Below the pieces are notes generated by a model that worked only from the letters and a program-made list of their open reading frames with translations, was not told where the DNA came from and did not search any database. A stretch of DNA of 18,202 bases from a virus. The position numbers and the translations under genes were made by a program. The stretch lies in UHGV virus genome UHGV-0153103; one strand, written 5' to 3'. Below, one piece after another: positions 215-18,202 of this stretch. Numbering within the stretch: the stretch's first letter is position 1; each line of letters begins with the position of its first letter.

Positions 215-222
215 GGAATGTC

Positions 223-1575
<1,353 letters not shown>

Positions 1576-1625
1576 TCCCCACCTCAATCTCAGTAACCCA
1601 AAAACAAACTATTTTCCGTTTAAAA

Positions 1626-1639
1626 ACAATGGAGTTTGT
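1626..1639. promoter_or_regulatory. Operator OL3 (ACAATGGAGTTTGT)
   Basis: ACAA-N6-TTGT 14-mer upstream of PL. Confidence 0.7.
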
Positions 1640-1656
1640 TTTTTGCACCTCCATTT

Positions 1657-1670
1657 ACAATATTTCTTGT
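1657..1670. promoter_or_regulatory. Operator OL2 (ACAATATTTCTTGT)
   Basis: ACAA-N6-TTGT 14-mer. Confidence 0.75.
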
Positions 1671-1698
1671 TTACAACATACAATCTTTCTTGTAATTT
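1670..1698 (+). promoter_or_regulatory. Putative PL promoter (-35 TTTACA, 17-bp spacer, -10 TAATTT)
   Basis: Sigma70-like hexamers with 17-bp spacing overlapping OL1/OL2, about 40 bp upstream of nutL and 180 bp upstream of N. Confidence 0.45.
1680..1693. promoter_or_regulatory. Operator OL1 (ACAATCTTTCTTGT)
   Basis: ACAA-N6-TTGT 14-mer, 23 bp from OL2, overlapping the putative PL spacer. Confidence 0.75.
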
Positions 1699-1737
1699 TA
1701 AGCCATCAGCAGGACGCACTAACCACCATGAAGGTGA

Positions 1738-1768
1738 TGCTCTTAAAAATTTAGCCCTGAAGAAGGGC
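1738..1768 (+). promoter_or_regulatory. nutL: boxA-like TGCTCTTAA and boxB GCCCTGAAGAAGGGC
   Basis: boxB hairpin identical to lambda nutL boxB as recalled; surrounding sequence closely lambda-like. Confidence 0.8.
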
Positions 1769-1878
1769 AGCATTCAAAGCAGAAGGCTTTGAGTAGCGCG
1801 AAATGCAGCTGCAAGACAGCAACCGTGGAGATAAGCATCACGGCGCGTTACTCAAAGCTAACTGACAGGAGAATCCAG

Positions 1879-2205
1879 ATGGATGCACAAACACGCCGCC
1901 GCGAACGTCGCGCAGATAAACAGGCTCAATGGAAAGCAGCAAATCCCCTGTTGGTTGGGGTAAGCGCAAAACCAGTTAACCGCCCTATTCTCTCGCTGAA
2001 TCGCAAACCGAAATCACGAGTAGAAAGCGCACTGAATCCAATAGACCTTACAGTGCTGGCTGAATACCACGAACAGATTGAAAGCAACCTGCAACGTATT
2101 GAGCACAAGAATCAGCGCACATGGTACAGCAAGCCACGCAGTGAAATGGGTGTGACCTGTTCAGGCCGCCAGAAAATGAAATTAGGCAGCAAACCACTTA
2201 TTTGA
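1879..2205 (+). CDS. N: Antitermination protein N (lambda-type, arginine-rich motif)
   Basis: MDAQTRRRERRADKQAQWKAANPLLVGVSAKPVNRPILSLNRKPKSRVESALNPIDLTVLAEY... is near-identical to lambda N with scattered substitutions; preceded by GGAGAATCCAG-ATG as in lambda. Confidence 0.9.
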   Translation: MDAQTRRRERRADKQAQWKAANPLLVGVSAKPVNRPILSLNRKPKSRVESALNPIDLTVLAEYHEQIESNLQRIEHKNQRTWYSKPRSEMGVTCSGRQKMKLGSKPLI

Positions 2206-2216
2206 GAGGAATTAAT

Positions 2217-2840
2217 ATGTCATCAATCCGCTTAACTACGAGAATGAAAGAGGAAATCGCTCGTAACGCTTTAATTAAGTCTGGGGTTTTCACTGAACTT
2301 GAAGAAGTAACAAAGTTAAAGAACCAGCTTGCACTTGACGCCAGAGTTATTGCGTTTGGCGGTAAAAAGAAAACTGAGGAAGTGGATCAGTTATCATCCA
2401 AGTTAGTAGCTATAAGTGAAGAACTTGAAAAACTGGGATGTTCATTTTACTCATACGATGTTCGTTCTACATCAATTTATCTGACTGTATCTGGCAGAAG
2501 AGTTGGCTGGCATTCATACGGAAAAGACGGCAACGGTGAAGATATATTGCTCCCCACCCCAGAAGAAGATAAATGCATGTTTGACGCAGAACACGAAATA
2601 ACAAAAAGGTTTGATGAAATCTGCGCATTGCAACAAAAACTTGAAGCCAAGAAAAAGGATATCGAATCAAATGTATGGGCTGCTTTGAACTCATTCACAA
2701 CAGTTAAGCGACTTATTGAAGTTTGGCCTGAAAGCAAAGAGTTGCTACCAAAAGAAGCAGATAAAGCAAGTACAGCACTTCCTGCTTTACGGGTAGAAGA
2801 TTTGAATAAGATGATTGGACTTCCTTCCGAGGCCGCATAG
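2217..2840 (+). CDS. Hypothetical protein (207 aa) in the ral/sieB slot between N and cIII
   Basis: ATG at 2217 with GAGAGGA ribosome-binding site; protein-like composition; followed immediately by an intrinsic terminator; no family recognised. Confidence 0.65.
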   Translation: MSSIRLTTRMKEEIARNALIKSGVFTELEEVTKLKNQLALDARVIAFGGKKKTEEVDQLSSKLVAISEELEKLGCSFYSYDVRSTSIYLTVSGRRVGWHSYGKDGNGEDILLPTPEEDKCMFDAEHEITKRFDEICALQQKLEAKKKDIESNVWAALNSFTTVKRLIEVWPESKELLPKEADKASTALPALRVEDLNKMIGLPSEAA

Positions 2841-2855
2841 TCGGCCTTTATTTTT
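2830..2855 (+). terminator. Rho-independent terminator (tL1-like): stem AGGCCG/CGGCCT, loop CATAGT, then TTTATTTTT
   Basis: 6-bp GC-rich stem with the stop codon of the upstream gene in the loop, followed by a T-run. Confidence 0.7.
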
Positions 2856-3064
2856 GGCATAAACAACAGAATAAACACTGCACTGTGTATTCATTCCAAC
2901 GAGTGAATACACGGAGCAATGTCGCTCGTAACTAAACAGGAGCCGACTTGTTCTGATTATTGGAAATCTTCTTTGCCCTCCAGTGTGGGGGCTTTTTTAT
3001 ATGCATACCAATAACGCTTCACTCGAGGCGTTTTCGTTATGCAATCAAACAGAAGGAGCATCCT

Positions 3065-3235
3065 ATGCAACAGTTCGCTATTGCAGGGGCGGCATCGGTT
3101 CGCCCTTTCAACCCGATTTTATCGGTACAGCATTCACGAAAAAATATTTTAACCGGAGCAGACTTTAAACAACCAAGAATGAAAAGTTTGCTCGAAAAGC
3201 TTTGGGATATTTTGAAACAACAAGGCCGTCCATGA
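3065..3235 (+). CDS. cIII: CIII-like protein (56 aa; putative FtsH/HflB inhibitor)
   Basis: MQQFAIAG... N-terminus and ...KSLLEKLWDILKQQGRP resemble lambda CIII (MQYAIAG... ...LIDILNQPG) as recalled; AGGAG ribosome-binding site; position after N as in lambda. Confidence 0.5.
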   Translation: MQQFAIAGAASVRPFNPILSVQHSRKNILTGADFKQPRMKSLLEKLWDILKQQGRP

Positions 3236-3390
3236 GTTTTACGGATAACTGGTCAGACGAAGAATTCATTCGTCAGATGAAAGAATTAATCGGTAACGAA
3301 GGAGATATTCATGTCACTTGCAACCACAGTGAAGGAGAGCAAGTTACAGAGACGCATGTACACGCAGAAAGCTCTCTGGTATCGCCATAA
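3232..3390 (+). CDS. Small protein (52 aa) in the kil position, unknown function
   Basis: ATG overlaps the cIII-like stop (ATGA), as kil overlaps cIII in lambda; the sequence does not match lambda Kil as far as I can recall. Confidence 0.4.
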   Translation: MSFTDNWSDEEFIRQMKELIGNEGDIHVTCNHSEGEQVTETHVHAESSLVSP

Positions 3391-3489
3391 TGGCGACCGC
3401 GAAGGAATGCGGGTATGCCTTAATTTGTCCCGAGTCGAAGTATTAAATCAGCGTTATTTCCTTGGGCCGTGTCCATTCTGAGGTGAATT

Positions 3490-4197
3490 ATGGATTTGAA
3501 CAAATTCGATGAGCCATTCAGCCCTGAAGATATCGAATGGCGAATACAGCAAAGCGGTAAAACACGCGATGGCAAGGTGTGGGCTATGGTGCTGGCTTAT
3601 GTCACGAACCGGGCAATCATGAAGCGCCTGGACGATGTTTGCGGCAAAGCAGGATGGCGCAATGAATACCGCGATATTCCCAACAACGGCGGAGTTGAAT
3701 GCGGCATATCAATCAAGATTGATTCCGAATGGGTAACCAAATGGGATGCTGCTGAAAACACGCAGGTAGAAGCCGTCAAAGGCGGTCGTTCCGGTGCAAT
3801 GAAGCGCGCTGCCGTTCAGTGGGGAATCGGTCGGTATCTGTATAACCTTGAGGAAGGTTTTGCACAAACATCTCTCGATAAAAAGCAGGGATGGCACAGG
3901 GCAAAACTCAAGGATGGAACAGGATTTTACTGGCTCCCTCCATCGCTGCCGGGATGGGCAATCCCAGCATCAGATAACAAACCATCACCAGAAAATACCA
4001 ACCAGAAATCTCCATCGGTTGACTGCGAACAAATCCTGAAAGACTTCAGCGATTATGCGTCAACAGAAACTGACAAGAAAAAACTCATCGAGCGTTATCA
4101 GCGTGACTGGCAATTAATGGCTGGCAACGAGGAGGCGCAGGCTAAATGCGTTCAGGTAATGAACATCAGAGTTAACGAACTAAAACAGGCGGCATAA
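3490..4197 (+). CDS. Rad52-like single-strand annealing protein (Sak/Rad52 family)
   Basis: Motifs VWAMVLAYVTNRAIMKRLD and KGGRSGAMKRAAVQWGIGRYLY are typical of phage Rad52-type annealases; GAGGTGA ribosome-binding site; immediately followed by ssb. Confidence 0.65.
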   Translation: MDLNKFDEPFSPEDIEWRIQQSGKTRDGKVWAMVLAYVTNRAIMKRLDDVCGKAGWRNEYRDIPNNGGVECGISIKIDSEWVTKWDAAENTQVEAVKGGRSGAMKRAAVQWGIGRYLYNLEEGFAQTSLDKKQGWHRAKLKDGTGFYWLPPSLPGWAIPASDNKPSPENTNQKSPSVDCEQILKDFSDYASTETDKKKLIERYQRDWQLMAGNEEAQAKCVQVMNIRVNELKQAA

Positions 4198-4713
4198 ATG
4201 GCAAGCAGAGGCGTAAATAAGGTGATCATTATTGGTCGCCTTGGGCATGATCCAGAAATCAGATATTCACCATCAGGAACGGCATTTGCAAACCTTACCG
4301 TTGCTACGTCAGAACAATGGCGTGATAAGAAAACTGGAGAGCAAAAGGAGCAGACGGAGTGGCACCGCGTGGTAATGAGCGGGAAACTGGCAGAAATTGC
4401 CAGCGAATATCTGCGAAAAGGCTCTGAGGTTTATCTTGAAGGCAAATTGCGGACAAGAAAATGGCAGGATCAAAGCGGACAGGATCGGTTCACTACCGAA
4501 GTCATCGTGGGCGTTGGTGGAACCATGCAAATGCTTGGTGGCAAGCAAGGAGGCAATGAACAGTCTTCACCTCAGCGAAATAATGGTCAGCAACAAAGAC
4601 AGCAACCTCAGCAGCAGGGAAATCACAGCGAACCACCTATGGATTTTGACGACGATATCCCCTTTGCACCAGTAACTCTCCCCTTCCCTCGTCACGCTAT
4701 TCACGCAATTTAA
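4198..4713 (+). CDS. ssb: Single-stranded DNA-binding protein (OB fold, Gln/Gly-rich linker, acidic DDDIPF tail)
   Basis: [44 protein letters not shown]... and C-terminal ...MDFDDDIPF are hallmark SSB features; start abuts the upstream stop (TAAATG). Confidence 0.9.
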
Positions 4714-4721
4714 GGACTTAC

Positions 4722-5270
4722 ATGAATCACTTGATGGTTGACCTTGAAACAATGGGCAACGGGCCATACGCGCCAGTTATTTCTATTGGGGCGGTATTCT
4801 TTGACCCGAATACCGGAGAAACAGGAGAAGAGTTCTCGGTAAATATCTCGCTTGAATCATCAATGCGATATCGAGCGCGTCCTGACGCTTCAACGATTTT
4901 ATGGTGGCTGGAACAGAGTGAAGAAGCCAGAAAATCGCTAACCAGCAACACTCAGGAGCTTTCAACGGCTCTTTCATGGTTATCTGAATTCATCATAAAG
5001 AACGCTAACCACAAATTCGTTCAGGTTTGGGGGAATGGAGCATCATTTGACTGCGTTATTCTCCGAAACAGTTATTCGCTGACAGGGCAGCCAGTTCCGT
5101 GGCAGTGGTGGAATGACCGCGACGTAAGAACAATCGTCGAACTTGGGAAGGTAATAGGATTCGACCCTAAGCGAGATATGCCATTCAAAGGAACTCGCCA
5201 CAACGCGCTTGATGATGCCATTCACCAAGCCAAATACGTTTCAGAGATCTGGAAAAAGTTAGCTAAATAA
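4722..5270 (+). CDS. DnaQ-like 3'-5' exonuclease (DEDDh family)
   Basis: Exo motifs VDLETMG (D-x-E), WGNGASFDCVIL (D) and HNALDDAIHQAKY (H-x4-D); AAGGA ribosome-binding site; an alternative start at 4734 is possible. Confidence 0.7.
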   Translation: MNHLMVDLETMGNGPYAPVISIGAVFFDPNTGETGEEFSVNISLESSMRYRARPDASTILWWLEQSEEARKSLTSNTQELSTALSWLSEFIIKNANHKFVQVWGNGASFDCVILRNSYSLTGQPVPWQWWNDRDVRTIVELGKVIGFDPKRDMPFKGTRHNALDDAIHQAKYVSEIWKKLAK

Positions 5271-5286
5271 TCAACAGGAGAAAACC

Positions 5287-5580
5287 ATGCCAGCGCCTCT
5301 GTATGGTGCGGATGACGCGCGCCGCTGTTCCGGCAATTCCGTATCGGAGGTGCTGGATAAATTCAGAAAAAACTACGATCAGATAATGTCGCTACCGCAG
5401 GAAACGAAAGAGGAAAAGGAATTTCGCCATTGTATATGGCTTGCAGAGAAAGAAGAACTCGAGCGAATTTACCAGACATCAATCCGACCATTCCGCAAAG
5501 CCACATATACCCACTTCCCTGAAATTGACCCGCGCCTGCGTAATTACCGCTCACGCTATGGCGCTATCAGTAATGACTGA
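5287..5580 (+). CDS. Hypothetical protein (97 aa)
   Basis: AACAGGAGA ribosome-binding site, co-directional packing in the operon; no family recognised. Confidence 0.5.
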
Positions 5581-5590
5581 GGAATTTACC

Positions 5591-5755
5591 ATGAGAGGAC
5601 TTGCATACAATCCCGGCATTCTTCCGGCAGAAATGATTATTCGCCAGCGCGTAAAGCCAATGCCATCGAGAGAGGAATTGCTAAAGAGAAATTCTTTTCC
5701 ATCAGTGAATCAAAACAAATATCTGAATGCGATGTGGCGGAGTGGGAAGAAATGA
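5591..5755 (+). CDS. Hypothetical small protein (54 aa)
   Basis: GAGGA ribosome-binding site 7 nt before the ATG at 5591; stop overlaps the next start. Confidence 0.4.
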
Positions 5756-6138
5756 AACAAATGTCACTAATTGAGATGGATGGTTTTCTGAAAGGTAAAT
5801 GCATCCCACGAGATTTAAAGGTTAACGAAACAAACGCTGAATATCTGGTGCGTAAATTTGCTGAAGCGGAGGCCAAGTGCGCGGCGCTGGCAGCGGATAA
5901 TGCGGCGCTTAAACAGTCGGAGAAGGAATTTAATAACTTCTGTCGTCAGGAGTACTACGGTTGGGAGGACAACTTCACGGAAACCCCAGCCACCGATGCT
6001 TTCCTGGCTGAAGTACGGGCGCAGGGTGTGGAGATGGCTATGGAGCATATGCAGTCGAGCGGTTCGTTAACATTTGGAGATTGCTACATATCACTTAACG
6101 AGTTCGCCGCAGAGCTTCGCAAAGGAGGTAACCAGTGA
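5752..6138 (+). CDS. Hypothetical protein (128 aa; an alternative GTG start at 5734 gives 134 aa)
   Basis: ATG at 5752 overlaps the upstream stop (ATGA); coiled-coil-like A/E/K-rich segment; no family recognised. Confidence 0.5.
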
Positions 6139-6434
6139 GTGTATATCTCATTGATAAACGCCGACGTGGGCAACAAATACCACCTGTAGGAATTCCGAAT
6201 CACACATGGTTTTGCGTACTTGATATCGATGGCATGGATAAGTTTGTTGACACTCGTCATTACTGCGATACCGCAACAGCTACTCCGGCGAAAGCAAAGA
6301 AAATGGCTGCTCTGATAGAAAACTGGACTCCACCTGATGGGTGGTGCAATGGGAATGATCGAGATTGGCATGAAAAAATGAAGGGCTATATCTGCGATTT
6401 CTTACGTAAATGCAACGGCTTCAGGGTGATGTGA
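6135..6434 (+). CDS. Hypothetical protein (99 aa, GTG start)
   Basis: AAAGGAGG ribosome-binding site 5 nt upstream of the GTG at 6135; overlaps the upstream stop; cysteine/tryptophan-rich. Confidence 0.5.
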   Translation: MSVYLIDKRRRGQQIPPVGIPNHTWFCVLDIDGMDKFVDTRHYCDTATATPAKAKKMAALIENWTPPDGWCNGNDRDWHEKMKGYICDFLRKCNGFRVM

Positions 6435-6435
6435 C

Positions 6436-7272
6436 ATGAACAAGATTGACTATCAGGCACTGCGTGAGGCAGCAGAAAAAGCAACGTGTGGTGCGTGGTC
6501 GCTCGAATATGGAGAGAACCGATTTGATGGTGATGATGCACTAATTCATCGCGAGGCTGCTGGATATATTCCCATTTGCAGAATTGAAGGAGCACATCCT
6601 GAAAGCGGTTTCGATGAAGATTTCCAAATGGAACAGCAGGCCAATGCTGAATTCATCGCCGCAGCCAATCCGGCTACCGTGCTGGCACTGCTGAATGAAC
6701 GGGAAAGAAACCAGCAATACATCAAACGCCGCGACCAGGAGAACGAGGAAATTGCTCTTACGGTTGGGAAGCTGCGTGTTGAGCTTGAGGAAGTAAAACA
6801 ACACGCTGAAGAATTATCCGAAACCAAGGCTGTTCGTAACCAATGGCGGCCAGATATTTGCCCAATAACCGGACGTACATTTTTCATGTGGATTGAGCAT
6901 CCAACATTGGGAAATGTGCCGACATATGGTGGCCCATTAGATAGTTACACCATTCCAACAAAGGACGGTGACGGTGAGTTTTCATGTGAGCGTTACGATC
7001 ATGATTTTGGCGGTTGGGTAGAAAGCGAATGTCTTGGGTTATATCTGATTGATGATAGAGAACAATGCAGGGTCTACGAACTGGAGGAACGCGTTAAAGA
7101 GCTGGAAACGCGGGAAGTTCATTTGCCGACTCGCTACGGCCTTCGATATGGACATCCGATAAATGATGATGAGCGCCACGTCATGATACCTAAAGAAAAT
7201 GGCAGTTGGCTTTACCTGATTGACCTAGAACACGCATTACGCGTCGCTGGCATTCGCATCAAAGGAGAGTGA
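6436..7272 (+). CDS. Ead/Ea22-like protein
   Basis: N-terminus MNKIDYQALREAAEKATCGAW resembles the conserved start of Ea22-like prophage proteins (from memory); central coiled-coil segment. Confidence 0.55.
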   Translation: MNKIDYQALREAAEKATCGAWSLEYGENRFDGDDALIHREAAGYIPICRIEGAHPESGFDEDFQMEQQANAEFIAAANPATVLALLNERERNQQYIKRRDQENEEIALTVGKLRVELEEVKQHAEELSETKAVRNQWRPDICPITGRTFFMWIEHPTLGNVPTYGGPLDSYTIPTKDGDGEFSCERYDHDFGGWVESECLGLYLIDDREQCRVYELEERVKELETREVHLPTRYGLRYGHPINDDERHVMIPKENGSWLYLIDLEHALRVAGIRIKGE

Positions 7273-7273
7273 T

Positions 7274-7789
7274 ATGGCATTAACACACCGCGAACTCTGT
7301 CAGATTGCGTACAAGTTCCTTAAGCGCAACGGGTTCAAGGTTTGTTTTCATGACCGCTTTATAGCTGTAACCAGTACCGGAGAACAGCCAGATGCTATGG
7401 GATTCAGAAATTCAGCATCATGCCTGATAGAGGCGAAGTGTTCTCGTGCTGACTTGTTAGCAGATAGAAAAAAGCGTTTTCGTAAAAATCCGTCTCTTGG
7501 AATGGGCGACTGGCGATTCTTTATTAGTGAGCCGGGAATTATTTCAATTGAGGATTTACCACCTGGCTGGGGGTTACTTCACGTTGTTAACGGAAGAGTA
7601 CGGAAAGTACATGGGTGGCCCAAGGGTAATTGCTGTTGGGGTAATCCTGACGATAAGCCATTTACTGGAAATAAGCAGGTTGAATGCGATTACATGTTAT
7701 CTGCATTAAGGCGCATGGAGTTGAGAGGGCACCTTAATGAAATATATGACGGTGTAATTGTTAATAAGAAAGAAGGAAACGCGGCATGA
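7274..7789 (+). CDS. Putative PD-(D/E)xK-type nuclease-like protein
   Basis: Candidate catalytic motif GEQPD-AMGF...CLIEAKCS (PD ... E-x-K with about 13-residue spacing); otherwise unrecognised. Confidence 0.4.
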   Translation: MALTHRELCQIAYKFLKRNGFKVCFHDRFIAVTSTGEQPDAMGFRNSASCLIEAKCSRADLLADRKKRFRKNPSLGMGDWRFFISEPGIISIEDLPPGWGLLHVVNGRVRKVHGWPKGNCCWGNPDDKPFTGNKQVECDYMLSALRRMELRGHLNEIYDGVIVNKKEGNAA

Positions 7790-8712
7790 TCACTATTACC
7801 AAAGAGCGACTACTGACAATCAAGCAGTGGCGCGAAACATACGGACCTGGTAGCAACGTTGTACTGCCAGCAGAAGAAGCGGAAGAACTGGCACGAATTG
7901 CTCTGGCAGCGCTGGAAGCCGAGCCGATAGGTTTCCGTTGCAGGCGCAATGATAACCTTGGTGATTGGAGTTACGTATATCATCGAGAGCCAGATGATTT
8001 TGAGCGCAAACATTTAGTGATAGAGGGCATTTACGCCGCCCCTCCAGCACCAGTAGTACCGGAAGAAAAACCAATGCCTAATCCTCTTAGCATGTACGCG
8101 GTTGATGCTGTTGCCGCTATTGCAGAGGTGAGAGGCTGGAACGCCTGCCGTGCCGCTATGCTTCAGTCCGGAAACTTTCGGGAAAACAAGAATTCGTCAA
8201 CCAATAATTTTCGGGAAATCGCGGAAACGTCAACCAACTATCCGGTAATTCCTAGTGAGGTGTTGTCCGCAATCCTGAAGGTTGCCAAGATTCGTGCCGA
8301 TTTCGATGATTTTGACGGTGACAGGCGAGGTATCGGTGATTGTCTGGATGAGGCTGAGCAAGAGCTTATCGTTACCATTAACAAATATGCCAGTCAGTTG
8401 GCAGCAGAACCGATAGCGACTAATGACGTTCGAGAGCAAACAGCCGTTCCGCCAGTTCCGGTAACTCCGGATGGTTGGATAAGCTGTAGTGATCGAATGC
8501 CAGAAATGGGAGAGCGACAATGCTATGTGTTAGCTGCTGACTTTAAAAACAACTACCCACCAAACATCCCCAACACTCAGGTCGGCGTATATGGCGACTG
8601 GTTTAATGATGGCAAGCCCACTTGGGATGACGGTGATGGCGAAGACCTGCATCTCAAAGAAGTAACCCACTGGATGCCGCTACCAGAACCGCCGAAGGAG
8701 GTACGCCAATGA
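7786..8712 (+). CDS. Hypothetical protein with DUF551-like C-terminal domain
   Basis: C-terminal ...GWISCSDRMPE...VTHWMPLPEPPK resembles the DUF551 signature common in lambdoid early regions (from memory); last gene of the plus-strand operon. Confidence 0.5.
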   Translation: MITITKERLLTIKQWRETYGPGSNVVLPAEEAEELARIALAALEAEPIGFRCRRNDNLGDWSYVYHREPDDFERKHLVIEGIYAAPPAPVVPEEKPMPNPLSMYAVDAVAAIAEVRGWNACRAAMLQSGNFRENKNSSTNNFREIAETSTNYPVIPSEVLSAILKVAKIRADFDDFDGDRRGIGDCLDEAEQELIVTINKYASQLAAEPIATNDVREQTAVPPVPVTPDGWISCSDRMPEMGERQCYVLAADFKNNYPPNIPNTQVGVYGDWFNDGKPTWDDGDGEDLHLKEVTHWMPLPEPPKEVRQ

Positions 8713-8798
8713 CCTAGCCTGAAGCATTTGCAATTGTAGTGGCTGCCATTTTGATCGCACTGATTGTTTTTGCGATTTGCCGCTGGGGGTAAAATAGT

Positions 8799-9026
8799 TC
8801 ACCTGCATGGAGATTTGATGCCGGGGAATTGTGGGGGAGCATTCAAACCTCTCCCCTTCCCGGTTAAAGACTCCATTGCTTTGCGGTCAGAGAGATACAT
8901 CAGCTTCATCAGCTTCATCAGCTTCATCAGCTTCATCAGCTTCATCAGCTTAATGAAACGCATAGATCCGCCATGCTTTTTCAGCAAATACGCTGCCATT
9001 TGCGCAACTTTTTCTTCATTAAACAT
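8799..9026 (-). CDS. Small ORF (75 aa) containing (MKL)x6 from the tandem repeat; N-terminus reminiscent of Panacea/DUF4065 (SocA-like) proteins; possibly a truncated remnant
   Basis: MFNEEKVAQMAAYLLKKHGGSMRFIKLMKL...MYLSDRKAMESLTGKG resembles the conserved KLxKLLY N-terminal block of DUF4065 proteins as recalled; no strong ribosome-binding site; protein far shorter than that family. Confidence 0.3.
   Translation of the reverse strand: MFNEEKVAQMAAYLLKKHGGSMRFIKLMKLMKLMKLMKLMKLMYLSDRKAMESLTGKGRGLNAPPQFPGIKSPCR
8898..8951. repeat. Perfect tandem repeat, 9-bp unit CATCAGCTT x 6 (54 bp)
   Basis: Seen directly; in-frame for both strands (ISF on plus, MKL on minus). Confidence 0.97.
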
Positions 9027-9119
9027 AAATCGGCTCTCTGTCTCACATGAAACACTCTTTCTGACTATATGTTAATAGCTCCGGTTATTACAGGTTAATG
9101 TGTGTTTATTTCTTAATCA

Positions 9120-9142
9120 GCCCCGCACTTCCGTACGGGGCC
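9120..9142. terminator. GC-rich hairpin (GCCCCG / CGGGGC) between the convergent operons, possible bidirectional terminator
   Basis: 6-bp G/C stem directly 3' of the giant gene stop; flanking U-run is weak on both strands. Confidence 0.3.
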
Positions 9143-9149
9143 ATTTCTG

Positions 9150-12100
9150 TTAATCCACTCCCACTTTTTTGTTGTACTCGCGGTTAAACCGATCCACGGC
9201 AACCTTCATATCCCGCTCTACCGATTTCACCATCGCCGCCTGCTGCGCCAGACTGAGAGAACTGTCGGCATAAATGGCATCGCGCTGTTTGCGCAAATCC
9301 TTCAGTCTCTTCCGGGTATCCTGCATAAGCCCGTTCATCAACAATTTTCCGTTGTTCTCGTCAATGAACGCCGTTCTTTCTGCACCGGTCAGACTCTTCA
9401 GCTCTGCGTGATACTGCGCAACCTCTGTCATCCGGTCGTACATCTTCTGCTGGTCTGCATACGGCATCACCTCACCCGAAATTTTCCCCAGGAAGGGCAC
9501 CTGCTGTTCCGGTATATCAATACCATTCAGCGATTTCACCGCCGCATCCGTGGTTTTGGAAATGAAGCGCCCTGTCCCTCCGGAGATATAGTCAATCCAG
9601 AATTTCAGCGATTCCGGTGTGATATCCACCGCGCCGGGACGATACTGGCTGCCACCTGAGAACGCATTCAGCCAGGATGCAAACGCCTTGTACGCTTCTG
9701 GCGTTGAACGTCTTCCCAGCTGGCTGTCAGGTTTTGGTGTACCAAACGGCATGTTCTCCTGGTAAATCTGCGCCCCCATGAAGTTTTCATTCATGGCAAG
9801 GTTCGCAAACGGACGCAGAATGGTCGGTGCTGCGTTTTTCAGCAATGCCCCCGACAACGTTTCCGACGTCTCGCTGCCGATCGGGCTGAATGCTCCCAGG
9901 ATACCGCCGACAACATTACCGGCAGCACGTGAAGCAGTCAGGTCGCCCGCTGCCACACCTTCAGCTGTATGACCAAGCAGGAAGAACACGTTGTACCCGT
10001 AAGGCAGAGGAATACTCCAGTACTCACCGGCCTTGCCCCCGAACATCGATTTCATGATGACGAGGTTACGCTCTTTCACATGAGACGGTACTTTGTCGTA
10101 CCAGTTAACCCCGTCATCATCCTCACCCGCCACACTGCGGTTAAGCGAGCCAAGCAGATAACCCGCTCCCACAGCTGCAAGCACGATTTTCTGCGGTACA
10201 TTGAGATTCTTCCAGCGAAGGCGCTCCAGTAACGGCCCGTCGCCATTAAGATGTCCGAGCGTTCTCACCAGGTTTGCGGTCCCCTGAATGCTGGCGTTGG
10301 CAAACATGTACAGCGAGTTCATCAGCATCCCCTGCTCACCACGACGGTTAAAGTTCACCGTCATGTTTTTGGCAAGAGACGCCGCCTGCTGGCGTGACAA
10401 ACCGGCATCACGGGCGTGTTTATAGGCAGAAAGACGCAGAGCGTTTTCAACCGCGCCGTTGGCATCCTCGACCAGGTTCAGGAACGAATGCCATGCACCG
10501 ATACTCTGGCCTTTCCATCCGCCCTTCGCCAGCGACACAAGGCGATCCATTTCCTTCTGCTGGCCCTCAAGGTCACCCATGTTAAACCAGCCGGTTTTAC
10601 CTCCGTCCTCAACAAACTCTTTCCACACTTTCTGCCACTGTGCGCCTTTGCCCGTGAGGGTTTTACCCCGCAGACTTGCGTATACGGCTGACATGGCGGA
10701 ACGGCTGTCTTTCACCACAGCCAGCGCGGATAAGTTATCCAGCCCTTTCAGTTTGCCGTCGCTTCTTCCCTGCTCAGCCTTCAGGTTCATCACCGCAGTC
10801 TGCACGTCACGGATGAAGTTACTGACCAGAAATTCCGGGTTATACGACGTGTTCACCGTTGCCAGGAAGCGGTTAACTTTCCCCAGCGTACGGATTACGG
10901 CGTTACTGGTTTCCGGCCCCATGTTCTTCATCGCACGCATCAGGCGCGGATCATGAAGTTTAATGTAGTAAGTTTTGCCGTCCTTTTTGGTGGTGAAGTA
11001 GCGATCCGCCATCATTGCCATCGGCACAGGGCGCTCGACAACTTCGCGAATGGTTTCACCAGTTTCCTGGTCCTTGCGCTCTGCAATCACACGCATTGTA
11101 TCCGGTCTGTCATCAGTGAATACCTGCCAGTAATCCTTGTCGGGATTATCCTGTACCAGTTTCAGGAAGGCGTTACCCACTTCATTTTTGCGATTGCGGA
11201 TCAGCGATTCACTCAAATCCTGTATCGCCTGAGTGGAAGGAGACTGTGCGCGGGATGCACGCCCCATGGCCTGCTTACTTTCACGCCCGCCGATGGTGAA
11301 TCCCTTGCCTGTACGTGGCAGTGACACCACACCGTCAACATCCTGCCCTTTCAGGGGGACGTAGTAACGGTAGGCTTTCTGCCAGGCATCCACCACGCCG
11401 CTCTCTTCCAGTCCTGCCTCACGGATAATCTCACGGCGACGGGCCAGCATATCGTCAATAATCCCTGCCAGACGGTCATACTGTGCCTGTTTGCCGCTGT
11501 TACGCACACGCTGCATGATTTCCGCCGCTTCCGCGTTGGTCATCCCCGAACCGCCGTCCGGCATTTTCGGGTTGATTTTCGCAATATGCGCGTTACGTTC
11601 CGGCGCGTGACGGGCGTAGAGGTACTCATCCAGATCGGCCTGCGCAATTTTGTAGTCCGCCAGCAATTTGGCCAGCGGCTGAACGTAGCGCTCCTTCATT
11701 ACGTTCAGGTCGTTTTCCGCCTTCCCGTGGAAGAGTTCTTCAGCCATATAGGCGTTATTGCTGTCATCTATTTTTCCGCCAGTTTTACGGATATTCTCCT
11801 GCACCGCCTTCAGCACCTGGAATTTATCCTGCATCTGGCGAACAAAACGGGATGCAATTGTCTCTTCCGGCGTCAGACTGCTGGTGCGGGAGTAATACGG
11901 CCCCTTGCGAATATCTTCAGGATAGAGTATTTTATCTACAGAGCCGCGATAAGAATGTTCCCCTTTGGGCAATTGAAGCCCTCTGTGCAGAAGGTTATCG
12001 CGGCTTAATTTTTTCTTCCGGTAAAGCGTTAATCCGGCTTTATCCAGACTATTTGCCTTATTCATTCCTCCTTCCGTACCGTAAACCGAAGCTACCTTGT

Positions 12101-15100
12101 TGATTTCCAGGCGCGACCGGACAGCCTTCATGTGTACCGCTGACACTACAGGATCACCATTTTTATCCATGGCATCAAGCAGCATCACAACCGCATTTCT
12201 TTCTGTCGCGGAACGGTAAATTGCATCCGGATCGTGCATCAGTTCCGGTAGTCTCTCGATAACATCCATCGGCACCACATGTTTCACTCCATTGGTGGCC
12301 TTACGCACAGTGTCGCGGGAGATAACCAGCGGCAAATCTGGTGCGCCAAGGTGACGCAATACCGGCGGCGTACGCCCGATGTTTACCGTTAAATCTGTGG
12401 TGCGCAGAGACTTCATCATTCTGGCAAGGTCATCACGATAACGCTCGCCCTCACCTTCCGGCACTTTGAACGGATCAGGCTTACCGCTACGGGAGTACTG
12501 AGACGATGCGTCCGCGCCATCCTCACGCGGCGTGTAACCTTCCCGCACACGCTGGCCTAACGTGCGAATAGTTTCGCGAACAAGTCTGATATCGTTCAGT
12601 TCCGTCGGCTTCAGTAACCCCGTACGACGCAGTACCCCTTTGACCAGGGCAACAACACGCTCCCATGCCGCCACGAATTTAATCGGCTGCTTCTCTGCCA
12701 TATGCGCCAGAAATTCACCCGCCTGCACTTCCGGTGATTCCTTACCATAAGACGCATCAACCTTACGCCAGGCTTCACGGATGGTGGCGTTATCACTGTC
12801 ACGGGTTTTCAGCACGGTCTTAATAATCGTCTGATATTCCGCTGGCGTGACTACATGCTCCATTGCATGGTGAATAATCTCGTGACGTAACTTCTCGCGA
12901 ACGGTCCGCCCGTCAGGGATGTTATCCGCCACCAGGACAATTTCACGTTTATCCGGACGATAGAACGCGTGCACCTTGCCGTAACCGTCGAATGATTCAC
13001 CCGCCAGTGCTTCAGCCTCTTTCTGTGACTTCACCACGCGGACCTTCAGGTCACTGTCCTTAATGCCACTAATCACGCCACGGGCAACAGCTTCAACCTG
13101 CGGGACCGGACTGCCTTTGGCTTCCGCACTGCGGTTAACATCCGAAATCAGATTGCCTTCAGGTGTGCGGGTCACGCCCTTACGGGAATAAAACGCAACT
13201 CCCTTGTCCGTCTCACGGGTTTTCAGTGTTCGGAACAAGTGATCGAATGCCTCACGAATACCGCCATCCAGTTCTGCATTCGTCGGATAAGCGTAGGTGT
13301 CCGGCTGTCCATGGTCATCCGCCTTACGGATATTGACCAGATAATCATTCTCCACGCCAGCCATACGCGCTTTATCCTGAACATAACGCTCAAAGGCTCG
13401 CGCCGCCATTTCAACATCCGTTGACCAGTACGGTTTTGAACGAACGCCATCCAGGCGTTCAGAACGACGCAACATGTCACTGCTGTTAATGGCTTTCATC
13501 ACGCCTTTAAACGCGTCGTAAACCTCCTGACGTACCGGATATTCCGCATCAACATACCTGCCGTCTTTAAATACGCGCCCGGCACGCTGTGCTTCCGTCA
13601 TATAGTCGCCACCTGACGTGATCTTCCCGTCAGTGGAAACATCATAACGACCAAAATAATTATCCAGTGAATGGAACCATTCGTGGGCCAGCGCCCCCGG
13701 TCCGTTACCTTTTGTCAGGTTGATTGCCACCTCACCCGGCTCATAGTGTGCCGCCGCCTTACCCTTACCACGGGCACCAAAAGCAAGCCCAAGACGACCG
13801 TTCAGAGAAAGCGCTTTTGTCGGCACGTTCAGCACGTCAGCCAGGTCATGCAGCGAGTCATAAGCCCGGTTCAAATCAGCCTGACGACGCGGACTTTCCA
13901 CATAATTACCAAACTGCACACCACGAAAACCAAACGCATCACTGAACTGCTCCGGCGAAACATCCCCCTTGCGGCGTTCTGGTCCGGTACGATCGCGGTT
14001 GGTGGCGTTACGCTGCTCCTCACGCGAGACTTCACGCAGCGCCTTCACCTGATTAACCAGCTCATCACGATGTGTGCGCACATAATCATGTGCATCACGG
14101 GCAGACTCAAAACCGCCCTTCAGTTTCTGCCTGTTTTTGCCATAACCGATAAAAATGTCGCCACTGGCCTTATGCCGGTACACGTCAAAGGTTATTCTGT
14201 CATCAGCAGAGGTTGCTGGCGTTTCCCTTTCTCTGGAGCCTTGTTCATCGAAATATGCTTTCGCCTTTTTCAGTAACTCATCCCGGCTTTCCGAGAAAAA
14301 GAGGTCGCGCCCCTTGCTATCACGAAGCGAATACATCATTTGCGGCGGATCGTAACGTTTTCCCCCGACAAACGAATAAACACCGGACCTGACACGATAG
14401 CCGGATGCTTTATCAATCTGCAATGCAGAAAGCGTACGGAGCAGTTTCCAGGTATCCGACATGCTCCGTAACCCCGGCTTACTGTCCATCATATCAGCCA
14501 GTTTCGCTGCCGGAATTTTCCCCTCCAGCATACCGGCAGTAGCTTCGCGACCGCTTTTAACAATGCTGATCCATTTCTGCATGTTACGGCTTGTTCTGGT
14601 GGGAATTTCACTGCGATACAACGCCATCATTGCCAGCGTGTCACTATCCACACCTTCTTTTTCCAGACGGGCATAATCCGGCTTTGGAAACAGTTTGCTC
14701 AGTGGTTGTGTCGCGTACTCCCCATCCTCCAGCGTTTTACCCATAGCTTCAGCAAGCTGCGCATAACGGTGTTTTGCCGCGCCCTTAATCTCCTCGCCAA
14801 AGTCTTCAATTTTCGCACCACGCGCCTGCTGGTGAGTGCTCGGTTTATCTACCGGCACCGGCACCTCAGTATCCGGAACATCGGTTATGGTCTGGCGATT
14901 ATCCCCGGTCTGTCTGCGTGCTTCTGCCTGCTGTGCCAGTTCCGGAAGGGAGTCACGAACCATACGAGGGAGTGATTCAGGCTGTGGCATATCAACCCCA
15001 CGCTGACTTTCAGGTGCAGGAAGACCTTCACGCACTGGTGCTGTGGCGTTCTGCTCATCCGGTGACGGCAGACCACGACGAACTGTTTCGCCCTCCAGTA

Positions 15101-17504
15101 TTTCCCCCTGGCGACCAGCGGCATTTTCCGGTGCCTGCGCACGTCCTTTCTGGAAACTCTGGCCCTTCACCTCACCGGTTGTGGTAAAACGACCACCACG
15201 TCCGGCCTGATTTTCATCCGGCGTACGCGCTACTTCTCCTGGTAACGGATATCCCTGTCCGGGATGAATATCGCCGGGAGCGGGAAGGCGTGGACGCTCA
15301 GTTAACTCCTGTGCTGTCGGACCGGCATCACCTTCAGCCATCTGGGAACGCACCAGTTCTTCCGCCGTCGGCGCGTTGCCACGAGCAAGACGGGCCTGCA
15401 CTTCTGTATCATCCCCCGTAAAACCACGGAATCGCGGGTCACGCATGAACGCGGGCTGTTCCATCGGATCAGCATCAGTAATACGCTCTCCGTCAGCCAG
15501 AGTGTTAATGGTCTCCGTTGCCACATCTTCAGAGAACGCAGGATTATCCATTTCAACGGCATACTGATTCTCGCCTTTCTTCACTACGGACGGTTTCAGG
15601 CCGGTGGCGCTGGCATTGCGGAAAACGTCGCTCCCCAGAGCACTTTTTTCATCCGTGAAATAACGGTTGTCCGGACGCACCTTTTCAATGCGTTCTGCTG
15701 GTCTGGACGCACCACTCTCGTTAATTTCAATACGAACTTCATCCGGATCGCGGAACCGCACCGTCGGGTAAATACTCCCGTCGCCATCATCCGCATTTTC
15801 CGGCTGTGGCTGTGCCTCCGGTCTGGCCTCCCGCTGAGGGCGAAGCACATCACGTATTGCCTGTAACTGCTGCTCTTCAGTATCAGTACGCCCTTCCTTC
15901 TGGCTGAGTTTTCGGTATTCCTCAAGCAGTTCAGGGCGCGGCTTCGCCTTCAGCTCATCCATCACCGCCTGTCGCTTCGCCTGTTCATCCAGTTCATTCA
16001 ACAGCTGGCTGGCGGCTTCCCGGCGATGAACGGCAGACGTGTCTCCCTCATGTGCCATATCCGCATCAGCATACTGTTCCAGAAGCTGCTCGCGATTCAT
16101 CCCCTGCATAGATTCACGATGCTGTGCCACCGGATCAACCGGTTCGGGTTGCGGAGCCGATTCGTCCTGAGGAACGCTTTCAGCCTCACGCATGGCTGCT
16201 TCATCTGCCGCCTGACGTTTTCCACGATATCCGGCAGCCGCACCGAATGGTGCCCCCATTGCAGCACCAAGGGCTGCACCTTCGATCGTTGCGTCAGCCA
16301 CGCCCTCCCACGGTGACACATCCATTCCGGCGGTCTCACGCAATGCCGTGTTTTCCTGATAGCGTGAATAGCCACCCTGCGCCGCATTAATCGTCCCCTG
16401 TTCCGTGGCATTTCTGACAATGCCGCTTTTAACGGTCTTCGCCGTGCCCCGCATCGCCAGATTAAGCAACTGAGCATCGCCCAGTTTTGCCGCCATGGCA
16501 TTCACAGCCAGCAATTCAGGATCGGTTGCCAGCTGCGCACGCACCTCATCGGCAACACGCTCTTTTGCCAGGTCCATTTTCTGGCGGTCAGTAAGCTGCG
16601 CGTGCTGCGGATCTGCATCAATTGACAAAAAGGTCTGCTGAAATTTCGGTGACTTCGCCAGCTCAGAATAATCCGCGTTAAGAACAGCATCTGCCGCTGC
16701 CATTGCACTCCGCCCTTGCGCACTGACAGTGGAATGGGTGATCAGGCCTGCCTGGAAAAAATCCGGCATTTTTTTATCGACAGCTTCGGCTGCCAGTGCT
16801 GTGGCTCTTTCCGGCTGCATCCCTGCCGCGATGTATTTTTTCTCCAGCCCGGCGGTCAGCACTTTTCGCAGAGTGACATCACCCAGCTTTTTAGTCACAC
16901 CGCCTGCAACCATATCCGGTACAAGCGCACCAATCAGGTTAACCCCTTTCGCTACCCAGACCGCTGAATCATCATATCCTTCAGTCATCGGTGTATTCAG
17001 CGCCCGCTGCGCCCCCGGCGACATCTTGCCAGTCAGCCATTCATCCGAGGCTTTAGCGCCGCCACTGACGGCCTTGCCTGTGACCTTCAGACCTTTACCG
17101 ACAGTATCAGTAACCGCATTTTTTCCATCAGGCAGAGTGTCGATGACCTCATCCGCCCCCTTGCTGCCACCGACAAAAATATCCTGAACAGTTGCGACTC
17201 CCGGCAGCCCCATACGGCTGAACTCATTTAAAATACGTACCCCTGTTTTTACCGGGCTCTGAATCATCGCATCACCGAGTCCACGGGCCATTTCCCCTGT
17301 CCCCCGGACGGACTGGGCGACACCTTTCCCCATAGTTGGCAATACATCGCCCAGGCTGAACGACGTGCTGTTGTCCTTCCAGCGATTGGGATCGGAGAAA
17401 AACACATCATAGCTGTCAGTCTCTCCCGGCTGCTGAATGTTCAGGCTGTTGCGGCTCTGGTTGCCAAATTGCGCTTCAGGGCGCTGTTCATCGGAATAAG
17501 CCAT
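9150..17504 (-). CDS. Giant multi-domain protein (2,784 aa) with two HExxH zincin-like motifs; candidate virion-delivered or polyvalent protein
   Basis: Uninterrupted 8.35-kb ORF; GGAG 6 nt upstream of the ATG at 17504; HEWFH at 13671..13685 (residue ~1274) and HEIIH at 12870..12884 (residue ~1541); Pro/Glu/Gln-rich region about residues 430-900; hydrophobic Gly/Ala-rich segments near the C-terminus (about 10050..10200); no P-loop seen. Confidence 0.85.
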   Translation of the reverse strand: MAYSDEQRPEAQFGNQSRNSLNIQQPGETDSYDVFFSDPNRWKDNSTSFSLGDVLPTMGKGVAQSVRGTGEMARGLGDAMIQSPVKTGVRILNEFSRMGLPGVATVQDIFVGGSKGADEVIDTLPDGKNAVTDTVGKGLKVTGKAVSGGAKASDEWLTGKMSPGAQRALNTPMTEGYDDSAVWVAKGVNLIGALVPDMVAGGVTKKLGDVTLRKVLTAGLEKKYIAAGMQPERATALAAEAVDKKMPDFFQAGLITHSTVSAQGRSAMAAADAVLNADYSELAKSPKFQQTFLSIDADPQHAQLTDRQKMDLAKERVADEVRAQLATDPELLAVNAMAAKLGDAQLLNLAMRGTAKTVKSGIVRNATEQGTINAAQGGYSRYQENTALRETAGMDVSPWEGVADATIEGAALGAAMGAPFGAAAGYRGKRQAADEAAMREAESVPQDESAPQPEPVDPVAQHRESMQGMNREQLLEQYADADMAHEGDTSAVHRREAASQLLNELDEQAKRQAVMDELKAKPRPELLEEYRKLSQKEGRTDTEEQQLQAIRDVLRPQREARPEAQPQPENADDGDGSIYPTVRFRDPDEVRIEINESGASRPAERIEKVRPDNRYFTDEKSALGSDVFRNASATGLKPSVVKKGENQYAVEMDNPAFSEDVATETINTLADGERITDADPMEQPAFMRDPRFRGFTGDDTEVQARLARGNAPTAEELVRSQMAEGDAGPTAQELTERPRLPAPGDIHPGQGYPLPGEVARTPDENQAGRGGRFTTTGEVKGQSFQKGRAQAPENAAGRQGEILEGETVRRGLPSPDEQNATAPVREGLPAPESQRGVDMPQPESLPRMVRDSLPELAQQAEARRQTGDNRQTITDVPDTEVPVPVDKPSTHQQARGAKIEDFGEEIKGAAKHRYAQLAEAMGKTLEDGEYATQPLSKLFPKPDYARLEKEGVDSDTLAMMALYRSEIPTRTSRNMQKWISIVKSGREATAGMLEGKIPAAKLADMMDSKPGLRSMSDTWKLLRTLSALQIDKASGYRVRSGVYSFVGGKRYDPPQMMYSLRDSKGRDLFFSESRDELLKKAKAYFDEQGSRERETPATSADDRITFDVYRHKASGDIFIGYGKNRQKLKGGFESARDAHDYVRTHRDELVNQVKALREVSREEQRNATNRDRTGPERRKGDVSPEQFSDAFGFRGVQFGNYVESPRRQADLNRAYDSLHDLADVLNVPTKALSLNGRLGLAFGARGKGKAAAHYEPGEVAINLTKGNGPGALAHEWFHSLDNYFGRYDVSTDGKITSGGDYMTEAQRAGRVFKDGRYVDAEYPVRQEVYDAFKGVMKAINSSDMLRRSERLDGVRSKPYWSTDVEMAARAFERYVQDKARMAGVENDYLVNIRKADDHGQPDTYAYPTNAELDGGIREAFDHLFRTLKTRETDKGVAFYSRKGVTRTPEGNLISDVNRSAEAKGSPVPQVEAVARGVISGIKDSDLKVRVVKSQKEAEALAGESFDGYGKVHAFYRPDKREIVLVADNIPDGRTVREKLRHEIIHHAMEHVVTPAEYQTIIKTVLKTRDSDNATIREAWRKVDASYGKESPEVQAGEFLAHMAEKQPIKFVAAWERVVALVKGVLRRTGLLKPTELNDIRLVRETIRTLGQRVREGYTPREDGADASSQYSRSGKPDPFKVPEGEGERYRDDLARMMKSLRTTDLTVNIGRTPPVLRHLGAPDLPLVISRDTVRKATNGVKHVVPMDVIERLPELMHDPDAIYRSATERNAVVMLLDAMDKNGDPVVSAVHMKAVRSRLEINKVASVYGTEGGMNKANSLDKAGLTLYRKKKLSRDNLLHRGLQLPKGEHSYRGSVDKILYPEDIRKGPYYSRTSSLTPEETIASRFVRQMQDKFQVLKAVQENIRKTGGKIDDSNNAYMAEELFHGKAENDLNVMKERYVQPLAKLLADYKIAQADLDEYLYARHAPERNAHIAKINPKMPDGGSGMTNAEAAEIMQRVRNSGKQAQYDRLAGIIDDMLARRREIIREAGLEESGVVDAWQKAYRYYVPLKGQDVDGVVSLPRTGKGFTIGGRESKQAMGRASRAQSPSTQAIQDLSESLIRNRKNEVGNAFLKLVQDNPDKDYWQVFTDDRPDTMRVIAERKDQETGETIREVVERPVPMAMMADRYFTTKKDGKTYYIKLHDPRLMRAMKNMGPETSNAVIRTLGKVNRFLATVNTSYNPEFLVSNFIRDVQTAVMNLKAEQGRSDGKLKGLDNLSALAVVKDSRSAMSAVYASLRGKTLTGKGAQWQKVWKEFVEDGGKTGWFNMGDLEGQQKEMDRLVSLAKGGWKGQSIGAWHSFLNLVEDANGAVENALRLSAYKHARDAGLSRQQAASLAKNMTVNFNRRGEQGMLMNSLYMFANASIQGTANLVRTLGHLNGDGPLLERLRWKNLNVPQKIVLAAVGAGYLLGSLNRSVAGEDDDGVNWYDKVPSHVKERNLVIMKSMFGGKAGEYWSIPLPYGYNVFFLLGHTAEGVAAGDLTASRAAGNVVGGILGAFSPIGSETSETLSGALLKNAAPTILRPFANLAMNENFMGAQIYQENMPFGTPKPDSQLGRRSTPEAYKAFASWLNAFSGGSQYRPGAVDITPESLKFWIDYISGGTGRFISKTTDAAVKSLNGIDIPEQQVPFLGKISGEVMPYADQQKMYDRMTEVAQYHAELKSLTGAERTAFIDENNGKLLMNGLMQDTRKRLKDLRKQRDAIYADSSLSLAQQAAMVKSVERDMKVAVDRFNREYNKKVGVD

Positions 17505-17515
17505 ACAGACTCCAT

Positions 17516-17540
17516 AAAAAAACCCGGCACAATGACCGGG
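17516..17540 (-). terminator. Rho-independent terminator (stem CCCGG/CCGGG, then 7 U) between the upstream gene and the giant gene
   Basis: On the minus strand: CCCGGTCATTGTGCCGGGTTTTTTT, ending 2 nt before the giant gene ribosome-binding site. Confidence 0.7.
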
Positions 17541-17572
17541 TATCAGGAAATAGTATTAACGGGAATGGTGAA

Positions 17573-18154
17573 TTACTGCGCGTAATTCTGTTTCAGACCA
17601 CGGATAAACTCAGATGCAGAGGCCGCGCTATCATCCCTGGCCTGTTCCTCCCTGGCCTTTTGAATACGGAGAAAATTCGCATACCCGTGTTCCAGCAATT
17701 TCTGATTCTGAGGCTCCAGCATTTCTGGCTGACGGGAGGCCACTTCTCTGGCAAATGCCTGCTTATCCGGATCATCACCCGCCCAACTGGTAATCCCTTG
17801 TTGAATTTTTTGCTGCTGAATTTGCTGCTGATACTGCGGCAGTCCCATCGAAGCATAATATTGCGTCACTGCTCCCTGCGCATCACCGCCGTCCTGTGCA
17901 ACCTTTATCGCTACCTGGCTGGCTCCTTTCTGAAGTTGATCCGCAGAAAGTCCCTGCTGCTTCGGCGTGAAATAGCCGAAATTTTTCGAAATTTCCGCGA
18001 ATTTACTGCGTTCCCTGACAAGCTCAACAGCCTTATCAACAGGCACCGCCAGCACGGTTTGATCATCAGGATGTGCACTGCCGTATTCCGTAACGGGTTT
18101 ATGTGCTGTAGAGCCATCACTGTATGTGAGATCAAGGCCGATAAGTATGTACCC
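17573..18154 (-). CDS. 3' portion of a gene truncated by the contig end; Gln-rich hypothetical protein
   Basis: ORF runs into adapter; the apparent MYKRQ start is translated adapter sequence; real residues begin ...GYILIGLDLTYSDG; no family recognised. Confidence 0.55.
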   Translation of the reverse strand, partial: GYILIGLDLTYSDGSTAHKPVTEYGSAHPDDQTVLAVPVDKAVELVRERSKFAEISKNFGYFTPKQQGLSADQLQKGASQVAIKVAQDGGDAQGAVTQYYASMGLPQYQQQIQQQKIQQGITSWAGDDPDKQAFAREVASRQPEMLEPQNQKLLEHGYANFLRIQKAREEQARDDSAASASEFIRGLKQNYAQ

Positions 18155-18202
18155 CTGTCTCTTATACACATCTGACGCTGCCGACGAAGCTAGAAGTGTA
18201 GA
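18155..18202. other. Library adapter (reverse complement of the adapter at 1..46)
   Basis: CTGTCTCTTATACACATCTGACGCTGCCGACGA + AGCTAGAA + GTGTAGA is the exact inverse of the 5' end. Confidence 0.95.

Follow-up and report, generated by a model that had tools for sequence, protein, structure and literature searches.

A putative intrinsic terminator directly upstream of the giant late gene in a 933W/Sp5-type lambdoid prophage, and its likely read-through by Q-loaded RNA polymerase

The systems closest to the element reported here are the intrinsic terminators of lambdoid late operons and the Q protein with which RNA polymerase passes them. In its textbook form, an intrinsic terminator is a hairpin with a U tract of 7-9 nt immediately after it (PMC9388147). 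Once loaded at PR', Q acts as a nozzle at the RNA exit channel, by which terminator hairpins are kept from forming, and the Q-loaded polymerase remains processive for tens of thousands of nucleotides (PMC9388147); the nozzle and antitermination by Q are also treated in PMC6606751 and bioRxiv 10.1101/651190. Regarding the late genes of the phages concerned, ORF79 and ORF80 of Sp5 are both essential and needed for tail assembly (Mondal et al. 2016, PMC5155283). Lysogens of Phi24B express lom regardless of induction, and the expression of a gene downstream of lom is induction-linked (PMC3342100), which gives indirect in vivo support to the idea that terminators of the late region confine Q-independent transcription.

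The DNA analysed in this study is a stretch of 18,202 nt from the virus genome UHGV-0153103, hereafter called the window. Prophages in E. coli FORC_069 and others match the region at 99.9-100% identity, and the Stx-converting phages of the 933W/Sp5 type (Sepvirinae) match it at 93-95%; the window is a short-tailed lambdoid prophage of the 933W/Sp5 type. Its giant late gene, taken from the list of open reading frames, occupies 9150..17504 on the minus strand and encodes 2784 aa; it is the homologue of Sp5 ORF80/ECs1242 (2793 aa), and its product carries the domains LPD5, LPD1, MuF_C and LPD38, the mark of a "large polyvalent protein". Upstream of it on the same strand lies the 3' part (193 codons and the stop) of another late gene, the homologue of Sp5 ORF79/ECs1241, at 17573..18154. 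This fragment, which is cut at the contig end, matches at 100% a 421-aa hypothetical protein of E. coli FORC_069 and is without a Pfam family. The last 48 bases of the window (18155-18202) are an Illumina Nextera i5 adapter, reading ...TCTACAC-TTCTAGCT-TCGTCGGCAGCGTCAGATGTGTATAAGAGACAG on the minus strand, and database matches begin only at base 49 of the minus-strand query; the contig end is a library artefact that truncates the ORF79 homologue.

The left half of the window (1-9150) holds an early-left (pL-type) operon on the plus strand, convergent with the giant gene, in which a CI/LexA-like repressor (542-1174), Nmad5 (2202-2840), a Rad52-type recombinase (3490-4197), SSB (4198-4713), a 3'-5' exonuclease (4722-5270), Ea22 (6436-7272) and DUF551 (7786-8712) follow one another, all on the plus strand. 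Neither an integrase nor an attachment site is present in the 440 bp that separate the two operon ends. No complete E. coli genome was found to carry more than 60% of this half contiguously, and the left half is thus a mosaic. At about 8893-8946 on the minus strand, a 9-bp tandem repeat GCTGATGAA occurs six times, encoding (KLM)n, in a small ORF that closely follows the giant gene, and it is near this repeat that the window diverges from the FORC_069 prophage. In addition, a G+C-rich hairpin GCCCCGUACGGAAGUGCGGGGC at 9120-9141 on the minus strand stands 8 nt past the giant-gene stop with no U-run after it; it could be a 3'-end stabiliser, or could be tied to the end of a Q-modified transcript meeting the convergent early operon.

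The junction between the two late genes is a spacer of only 68 nt. On the minus strand, the stop codon TAA of the upstream ORF (17575..17573) is followed by 31 nt (17542..17572), which hold a TTAAT motif at 17559..17555, and then by the hairpin ACCCGGU-CAUUGU-GCCGGGU (17522..17541), with 7 pairs, a loop of 6 nt and a folding energy of about -11 kcal/mol. The pairs are an A-U, three C-G, two G-C and a U-G, so that 5 of the 7 are G-C or C-G. Directly 3' of the stem stands a U7 tract (17515..17521), which together with the last U of the stem (17522) makes 8 consecutive U in all (17522 and 17521..17515), and after another 2 nt (AU) comes the Shine-Dalgarno sequence GGAG of the giant gene (17509..17512), which the 4-nt spacer UCUG separates from the ATG at 17504..17502. 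Counted in this way, the hairpin begins 32 nt after the upstream TAA and ends 17 nt before the ATG, and it lies outside coding sequence on the same strand as both flanking genes, i.e. in sense orientation. The initial annotation had placed a clean hairpin with U7 at 17516..17540, 2 nt before the ribosome-binding site, as the separator between the upstream gene and the giant ORF. This arrangement is borne out on the minus strand with the U7 and the 2-nt distance as described, and each end of the interval needs to be moved by one base.

The question of whether such a structure might arise from base composition depends strongly on how it is scanned for. With a loose terminator scan, 18 sites were detected in the window against 18.9 expected from shuffles, a comparison which is uninformative. 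When the window was shuffled 300 times with its dinucleotides preserved and scanned under a strict criterion (dG <= -11 kcal/mol, at least 6 T in 8), a shuffled window held on average 0.077 sites with both strands counted, and the chance that a site of this quality falls in this 68-nt sense-strand spacer is about 1e-4. The site of the hairpin and U7 ranked 1 in the first terminator scan of the window, and in an energy-based scan of both strands it was again the strongest terminator-like site. Folded in isolation, the hairpin reaches -11.1 to -11.6 kcal/mol, with z = -2.9 relative to shuffles. On the plus strand the same hairpin is followed by UAUCA with no U-run, so that the site is unidirectional. 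The terminator sequence is present in a single copy within the window, and a repeated or mobile element was ruled out as its identity by this one occurrence.

Compared with what is expected of an intrinsic terminator, namely a G+C-rich stem-loop (a stem of about 5-14 bp, a loop of 3-8 nt) with an adjacent U tract, the element agrees on both counts; it is moreover in sense orientation, intergenic and downstream of a stop codon, and its structure has been maintained in evolution, as described below. By every feature that can be read at the sequence level, it is a genuine unidirectional intrinsic (Rho-independent) terminator. The 31-nt spacer should be long enough that a ribosome standing at the upstream stop codon would not cover the hairpin. 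Its strength is moderate, with 7 bp that include an A-U and a G-U, and the terminator could be of only partial efficiency.

The terminator is conserved across phages of this type. The genomes of 933W and Phi24B carry the variant GCCCGGC...GCCGGGU, and in a search of viral contigs (IMG/VR) with the N-terminus of the giant protein, which returned 42 loci with three hairpin variants, this variant was found in 20 of the 42. A third E. coli lineage has GCCCGAC...GUCGGGC followed by U7-U9. Among phage records searched by tblastn, relatives are almost entirely E. coli/Shigella Stx-type phages, and matches in Vibrio phages, at 30% identity, are too distant for intergenic DNA to be compared; genome contigs searched with the N-terminus gave no confirmed relatives. 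Salmonella relatives were obtained through a homologous-protein search with contig look-ups, in which most protein matches were contig-truncated fragments. In these relatives, whose giant N-terminus is 63-69% identical, the hairpin is GCCCGG...CCGGG(U/C) with U5-U6 and the GGAG is kept, and the remaining spacer and the gene ends have diverged despite the kept hairpin core. In all lineages a U-run of 5-9 stands right after the stem, the spacing from U-run to GGAG is 2-6 nt, and the folding energies of all hairpin variants range from -10.6 to -14.1 kcal/mol.

To what extent the pairing itself is preserved can be seen in an alignment of 13 distinct sequences, in which the GGAG is invariant. In this alignment 95.6% of cells are paired, as against 24-47% when the 3' partner is slid. 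Four of the 7 stem pairs never vary, and one pair shows a compensatory change from G-C to A-U (in 4 sequences of one lineage, probably a single event). Two pairs vary one-sidedly and yet stay paired, save that one of them is unpaired in the four Salmonella sequences. The evidence of covariation is by itself modest; it is a stronger argument that the stem, the U-run and their position have persisted where the flanks have diverged. Some of the conservation could be due to the E. coli phages sharing a recent ancestor. It can be argued from the universal retention of the U-run that termination itself has been selected. In several independent assemblies of Salmonella-type relatives (L045, L046, L048, L049), the giant gene is called as two ORFs, of 268-564 aa and about 2060-2500 aa, which may reflect a real split, a frameshift or pseudogenisation in that lineage.

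The conserved position of the GGAG also bears on where the giant gene starts. The Phi24B record (HM208303.1, 1462-1500) lets the giant CDS begin 39 nt further upstream, with an ATG in the same frame where the hairpin has its 5' edge, and adds the remark "putative leader peptide". The codon that matches this ATG is ATA in the window (17541-17543), and other lineages are without the ATG as well, which points to the GGAG-preceded ATG at 17504 as the real start; by this comparison the giant-gene start in Phi24B is probably mis-annotated.

Between the U-run and this ATG there are 10 nt, in which no promoter fits. Promoter searches of the junction gave no sigma-70-like or extended -10 promoter within the hairpin or 3' of it. 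Over the 650 nt upstream, the sole candidates are two weak 8/12 matches that lie more than 300 nt away inside the ORF79 homologue, and between the preceding terminator and the giant-gene terminator no sigma-70-like promoter was found. The initial annotation was right, then, in that almost no room is left for a standard promoter, with none detected there or nearby upstream, and it follows that the giant gene must be transcribed by read-through. The motif TTAAT (17555-17559, minus strand) stands 13 nt before the hairpin and is the same in every E. coli and Salmonella lineage, in a spacer from stop to hairpin that otherwise diverges between lineages; this invariance may be a coincidence of the alignment. 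As a -10 element it was rejected, with the A at -11 missing and a transcript from there bound to hit the terminator at once.

Alternative RNA structures were also searched for. RNAalifold on the 13-sequence alignment returned the terminator hairpin only, with no conserved alternative or mutually exclusive structure. A fold of the whole 86-nt spacer in which UUUCC pairs with the Shine-Dalgarno sequence was discarded, having a z-score of -0.9 and no conservation, and Rfam searched at permissive E-values gave only sRNA and leader models far below their gathering scores, which matched the generic terminator shape. There is accordingly neither a conserved antiterminator structure nor a known aptamer or leader family by which an attenuator, riboswitch or leader would be recognised. 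With respect to a 3'-UTR-derived Hfq-binding sRNA, the hairpin and the U tail are present, and neither a promoter upstream nor an Rfam family was found.

Read-through from far upstream asks for an antiterminator, and Q and PR' lie outside the window, so their counterparts were assessed in the near-identical FORC_069 prophage. In this prophage a 144-aa protein matches PF06530 Phage_antitermQ with E = 2e-50, and its gene lies 26.9 kb upstream of the giant-gene start on the same strand. From Q to the giant gene the annotated genes share one strand, the sole exception being a moron-like gene (heptose phosphatase) on the opposite strand, and they run in the order lysis genes, terminase, portal, N4-gp56-type capsid, tail fibre, cor, lom, hok, ORF79 and the giant gene; neither tRNA genes nor stx genes were found in the prophage. 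A promoter-like TTTACG-16-TATCAT overlaps the end of the Q gene, and about 258 nt downstream of it ends a hairpin with U7 of -13.3 kcal/mol, both being called by consensus match only. The PR'-tR' distance mapped by Term-seq in the Stx phages of Sakai is the same, about 258 nt (PMC7547250). The 770-bp gap after Q holds three sense terminator-like hairpins (17333-17821 of the FORC_069 prophage), the middle one of which is at the position expected for tR' and a StxS-like sRNA.

The terminator at the giant gene is one of many in this operon. We scanned the 36.2 kb from Q to the end of the giant gene in FORC_069 (dG <= -7.5 kcal/mol, at least 5 U in 8) and obtained 18 terminator-like sites in sense orientation versus 6 antisense, with 13 of the 18 within the 11% of sequence that is intergenic. 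On the lysis side these intergenic sense sites are three after Q, one before holin, one after lysozyme and two after Rz; among the structural genes they stand after portal, after capsid and after the gene following the capsid gene; distally they stand after lom, before the four-gene block ending in ORF79, and before the giant gene. This four-gene block has a sense terminator at each end in both the E. coli and the Salmonella lineages. Four of the operon's terminator-like sites sit 17-22 nt before the next start codon, a layout identical to that of the giant-gene junction. Of the features by which a Q-antiterminated lambdoid late operon can be recognised, the Q gene upstream on the same strand and the continuous gene array are present, and PR' and tR' have candidate sites, as assessed in near-identical prophages. 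The proposal in the initial annotation that the giant gene needs Q-type antitermination is supported, by inference from the Q gene 27 kb upstream in FORC_069, and the unusual promoter that it offered as the other choice finds no support. Its further suggestion of a tightly gated giant protein does not stand as a property of this gene, in view of the 18 sense sites in the operon and the 13 that are intergenic: the giant gene is under the same gating as all other late genes, and the design is the ordinary one of lambdoid phages.

Taking these observations together, we consider it likely that the element is a real intrinsic terminator within the late operon, which insulates in lysogens and is read through by Q-loaded polymerase. 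In the lysogen, Q-independent polymerase could arrive from stray or moron promoters, for instance from the constitutive lom about 3.6 kb upstream; without Q, the unmodified RNA polymerase would form the hairpin and release at the U7, and the promoter-less giant gene would stay silent. After induction, Q would load at PR' about 27 kb upstream, and the polymerase would then ignore this terminator and about a dozen others in the operon. The giant gene would come last among the cistrons of a late transcript about 35 kb long, with its translation starting from its own GGAG-ATG immediately past the U-run.

Other readings of the same structure differ mostly in what they take the hairpin to be for. 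That it is a chance hairpin without function would agree with the loose scan, whose sites are as many as in shuffles, but the strict-criterion expectation of 0.077 per window and an intergenic, sense structure conserved from E. coli to Salmonella with a compensatory change leave this reading effectively refuted and with hardly any probability. Only slightly better placed is the view that the giant gene has its own unusual or activator-dependent promoter, overlapping or following the hairpin, and that the terminator just ends the upstream unit. The presence of a strong terminator ahead of the giant gene speaks for it and nothing further does, whereas only 10 nt lie between U-run and ATG, neither a -10/-35 nor an extended -10 match was obtained within the hairpin or beyond it, and the spacer upstream is poorly conserved save for TTAAT, in which no usable register offers the key A at -11; we regard such a promoter as very improbable. 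It is also doubtful that the U-run beside the Shine-Dalgarno sequence is mainly a translation enhancer, a landing site for ribosomal protein S1 with the hairpin shielding the ribosome-binding site from upstream structure. U-rich and AU-rich leaders enhance translation in E. coli, and both the 2-6 nt between U-run and GGAG in all lineages and the four operon terminators located 17-22 nt before the next start codon would be in keeping with this role; compact phage gene packing, however, explains the juxtaposition equally well, and conservation of the hairpin core is no weaker than that of the U-run.

There are two readings that leave the hairpin a more active part in lytic growth. One is that it works as a partial terminator (attenuator) in lytic growth as well, which would lower the giant gene relative to the upstream tail genes for the sake of stoichiometry. 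The moderate stem strength of about -11 kcal/mol and the similar hairpins after the major capsid gene and other operon genes, where graded expression is plausible, favour this, but Q-loaded complexes are described as essentially termination-deficient (PMC9388147), and neither a conserved alternative structure (RNAalifold) nor an Rfam regulatory family match was obtained, so that we think attenuation rather unlikely. The other, which we rate as a tentative possibility and which is compatible with termination, is that the hairpin serves mainly RNA stability: after endonuclease cuts of the late transcript it would block 3'-to-5' exonucleases, and the mRNA of the ORF79 block would be shielded from decay starting in the 8.4-kb giant-gene segment. 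It is in line with this that a conserved hairpin closes, on its 3' side, a four-gene block bracketed by terminators, that terminator hairpins are reported in PMC11696848 to raise the stability of upstream mRNA, and that the Q-loaded polymerase prevents the hairpin only in the exit channel (PMC9388147), from which later folding would be possible. A decay barrier, however, needs no U-run, and yet U5-9 stands directly after the stem in every lineage.

As an extension of the preferred reading of a Q-bypassed insulating terminator, the module of hairpin, U-run and GGAG, which recurs at four junctions of the late operon and is conserved from E. coli to Salmonella phages, might be thought of as a deliberate three-in-one device, an idea that we put forward as speculative and improbable on balance. 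Its three roles may be to block Q-independent transcription, to form a decay barrier for the upstream message and to provide a U-rich landing pad for the ribosome. By such a device, a potentially harmful polyvalent giant protein may be kept silent in lysogens with constitutive morons (lom, hok), and the U-rich pad may set the translation rate of the next cistron. If this were true, the terminators would divide the late operon into segments whose expression is tuned separately.

The terminator has little significance beyond annotation. In this respect, the giant gene should be annotated from the ATG preceded by GGAG, not from the upstream ATG of some records. The giant tail/polyvalent protein of 933W/Sp5-type phages, the major Stx2 phages included, has no promoter of its own, and its gene should depend strictly on Q-mediated read-through of many terminators, which supports the picture of the whole 35-kb late region, with the Shiga toxin genes where they are present, as one antitermination-controlled unit. 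Moreover, the conserved intra-operon terminators could be a natural test set for the extent and completeness of terminator bypass by Q-loaded polymerase.

Literature searches gave no paper describing this junction or mapping transcripts across it. The nearest known systems are tR' and the downstream terminators of lambdoid phages (lambda, 21, 82, 933W), which likewise consist of a hairpin with U7 on the late-gene strand; they come from the same phage group, and read-through by the same Q-loaded polymerase is expected at the giant-gene terminator. The differences are that tR' lies in the leader, whereas the giant-gene terminator is some 27 kb away from PR' with a structural gene on either side, and that tR' of Stx phages generates the StxS sRNA, whereas no stable small RNA is known from the giant-gene terminator. 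The terminators that close morons (after lom, bor) are likewise intergenic and sense in the late region, with a similar hairpin after lom in the FORC_069 prophage; they differ in that the giant-gene terminator follows an essential tail-assembly gene and no promoter is detected in the block that it closes. Outside phages, mobile elements such as Tn916 and the conjugation operon of pLS20, according to PMC11658703 and PMC13401043, combine insulator terminators with element-encoded processive antitermination; the logic would be the same, and with different elements and different antiterminators the likeness is by analogy only. In view of these systems, the terminator at the giant-gene junction is a so far undescribed member of a very well-known kind, with nothing unusual in its biology.
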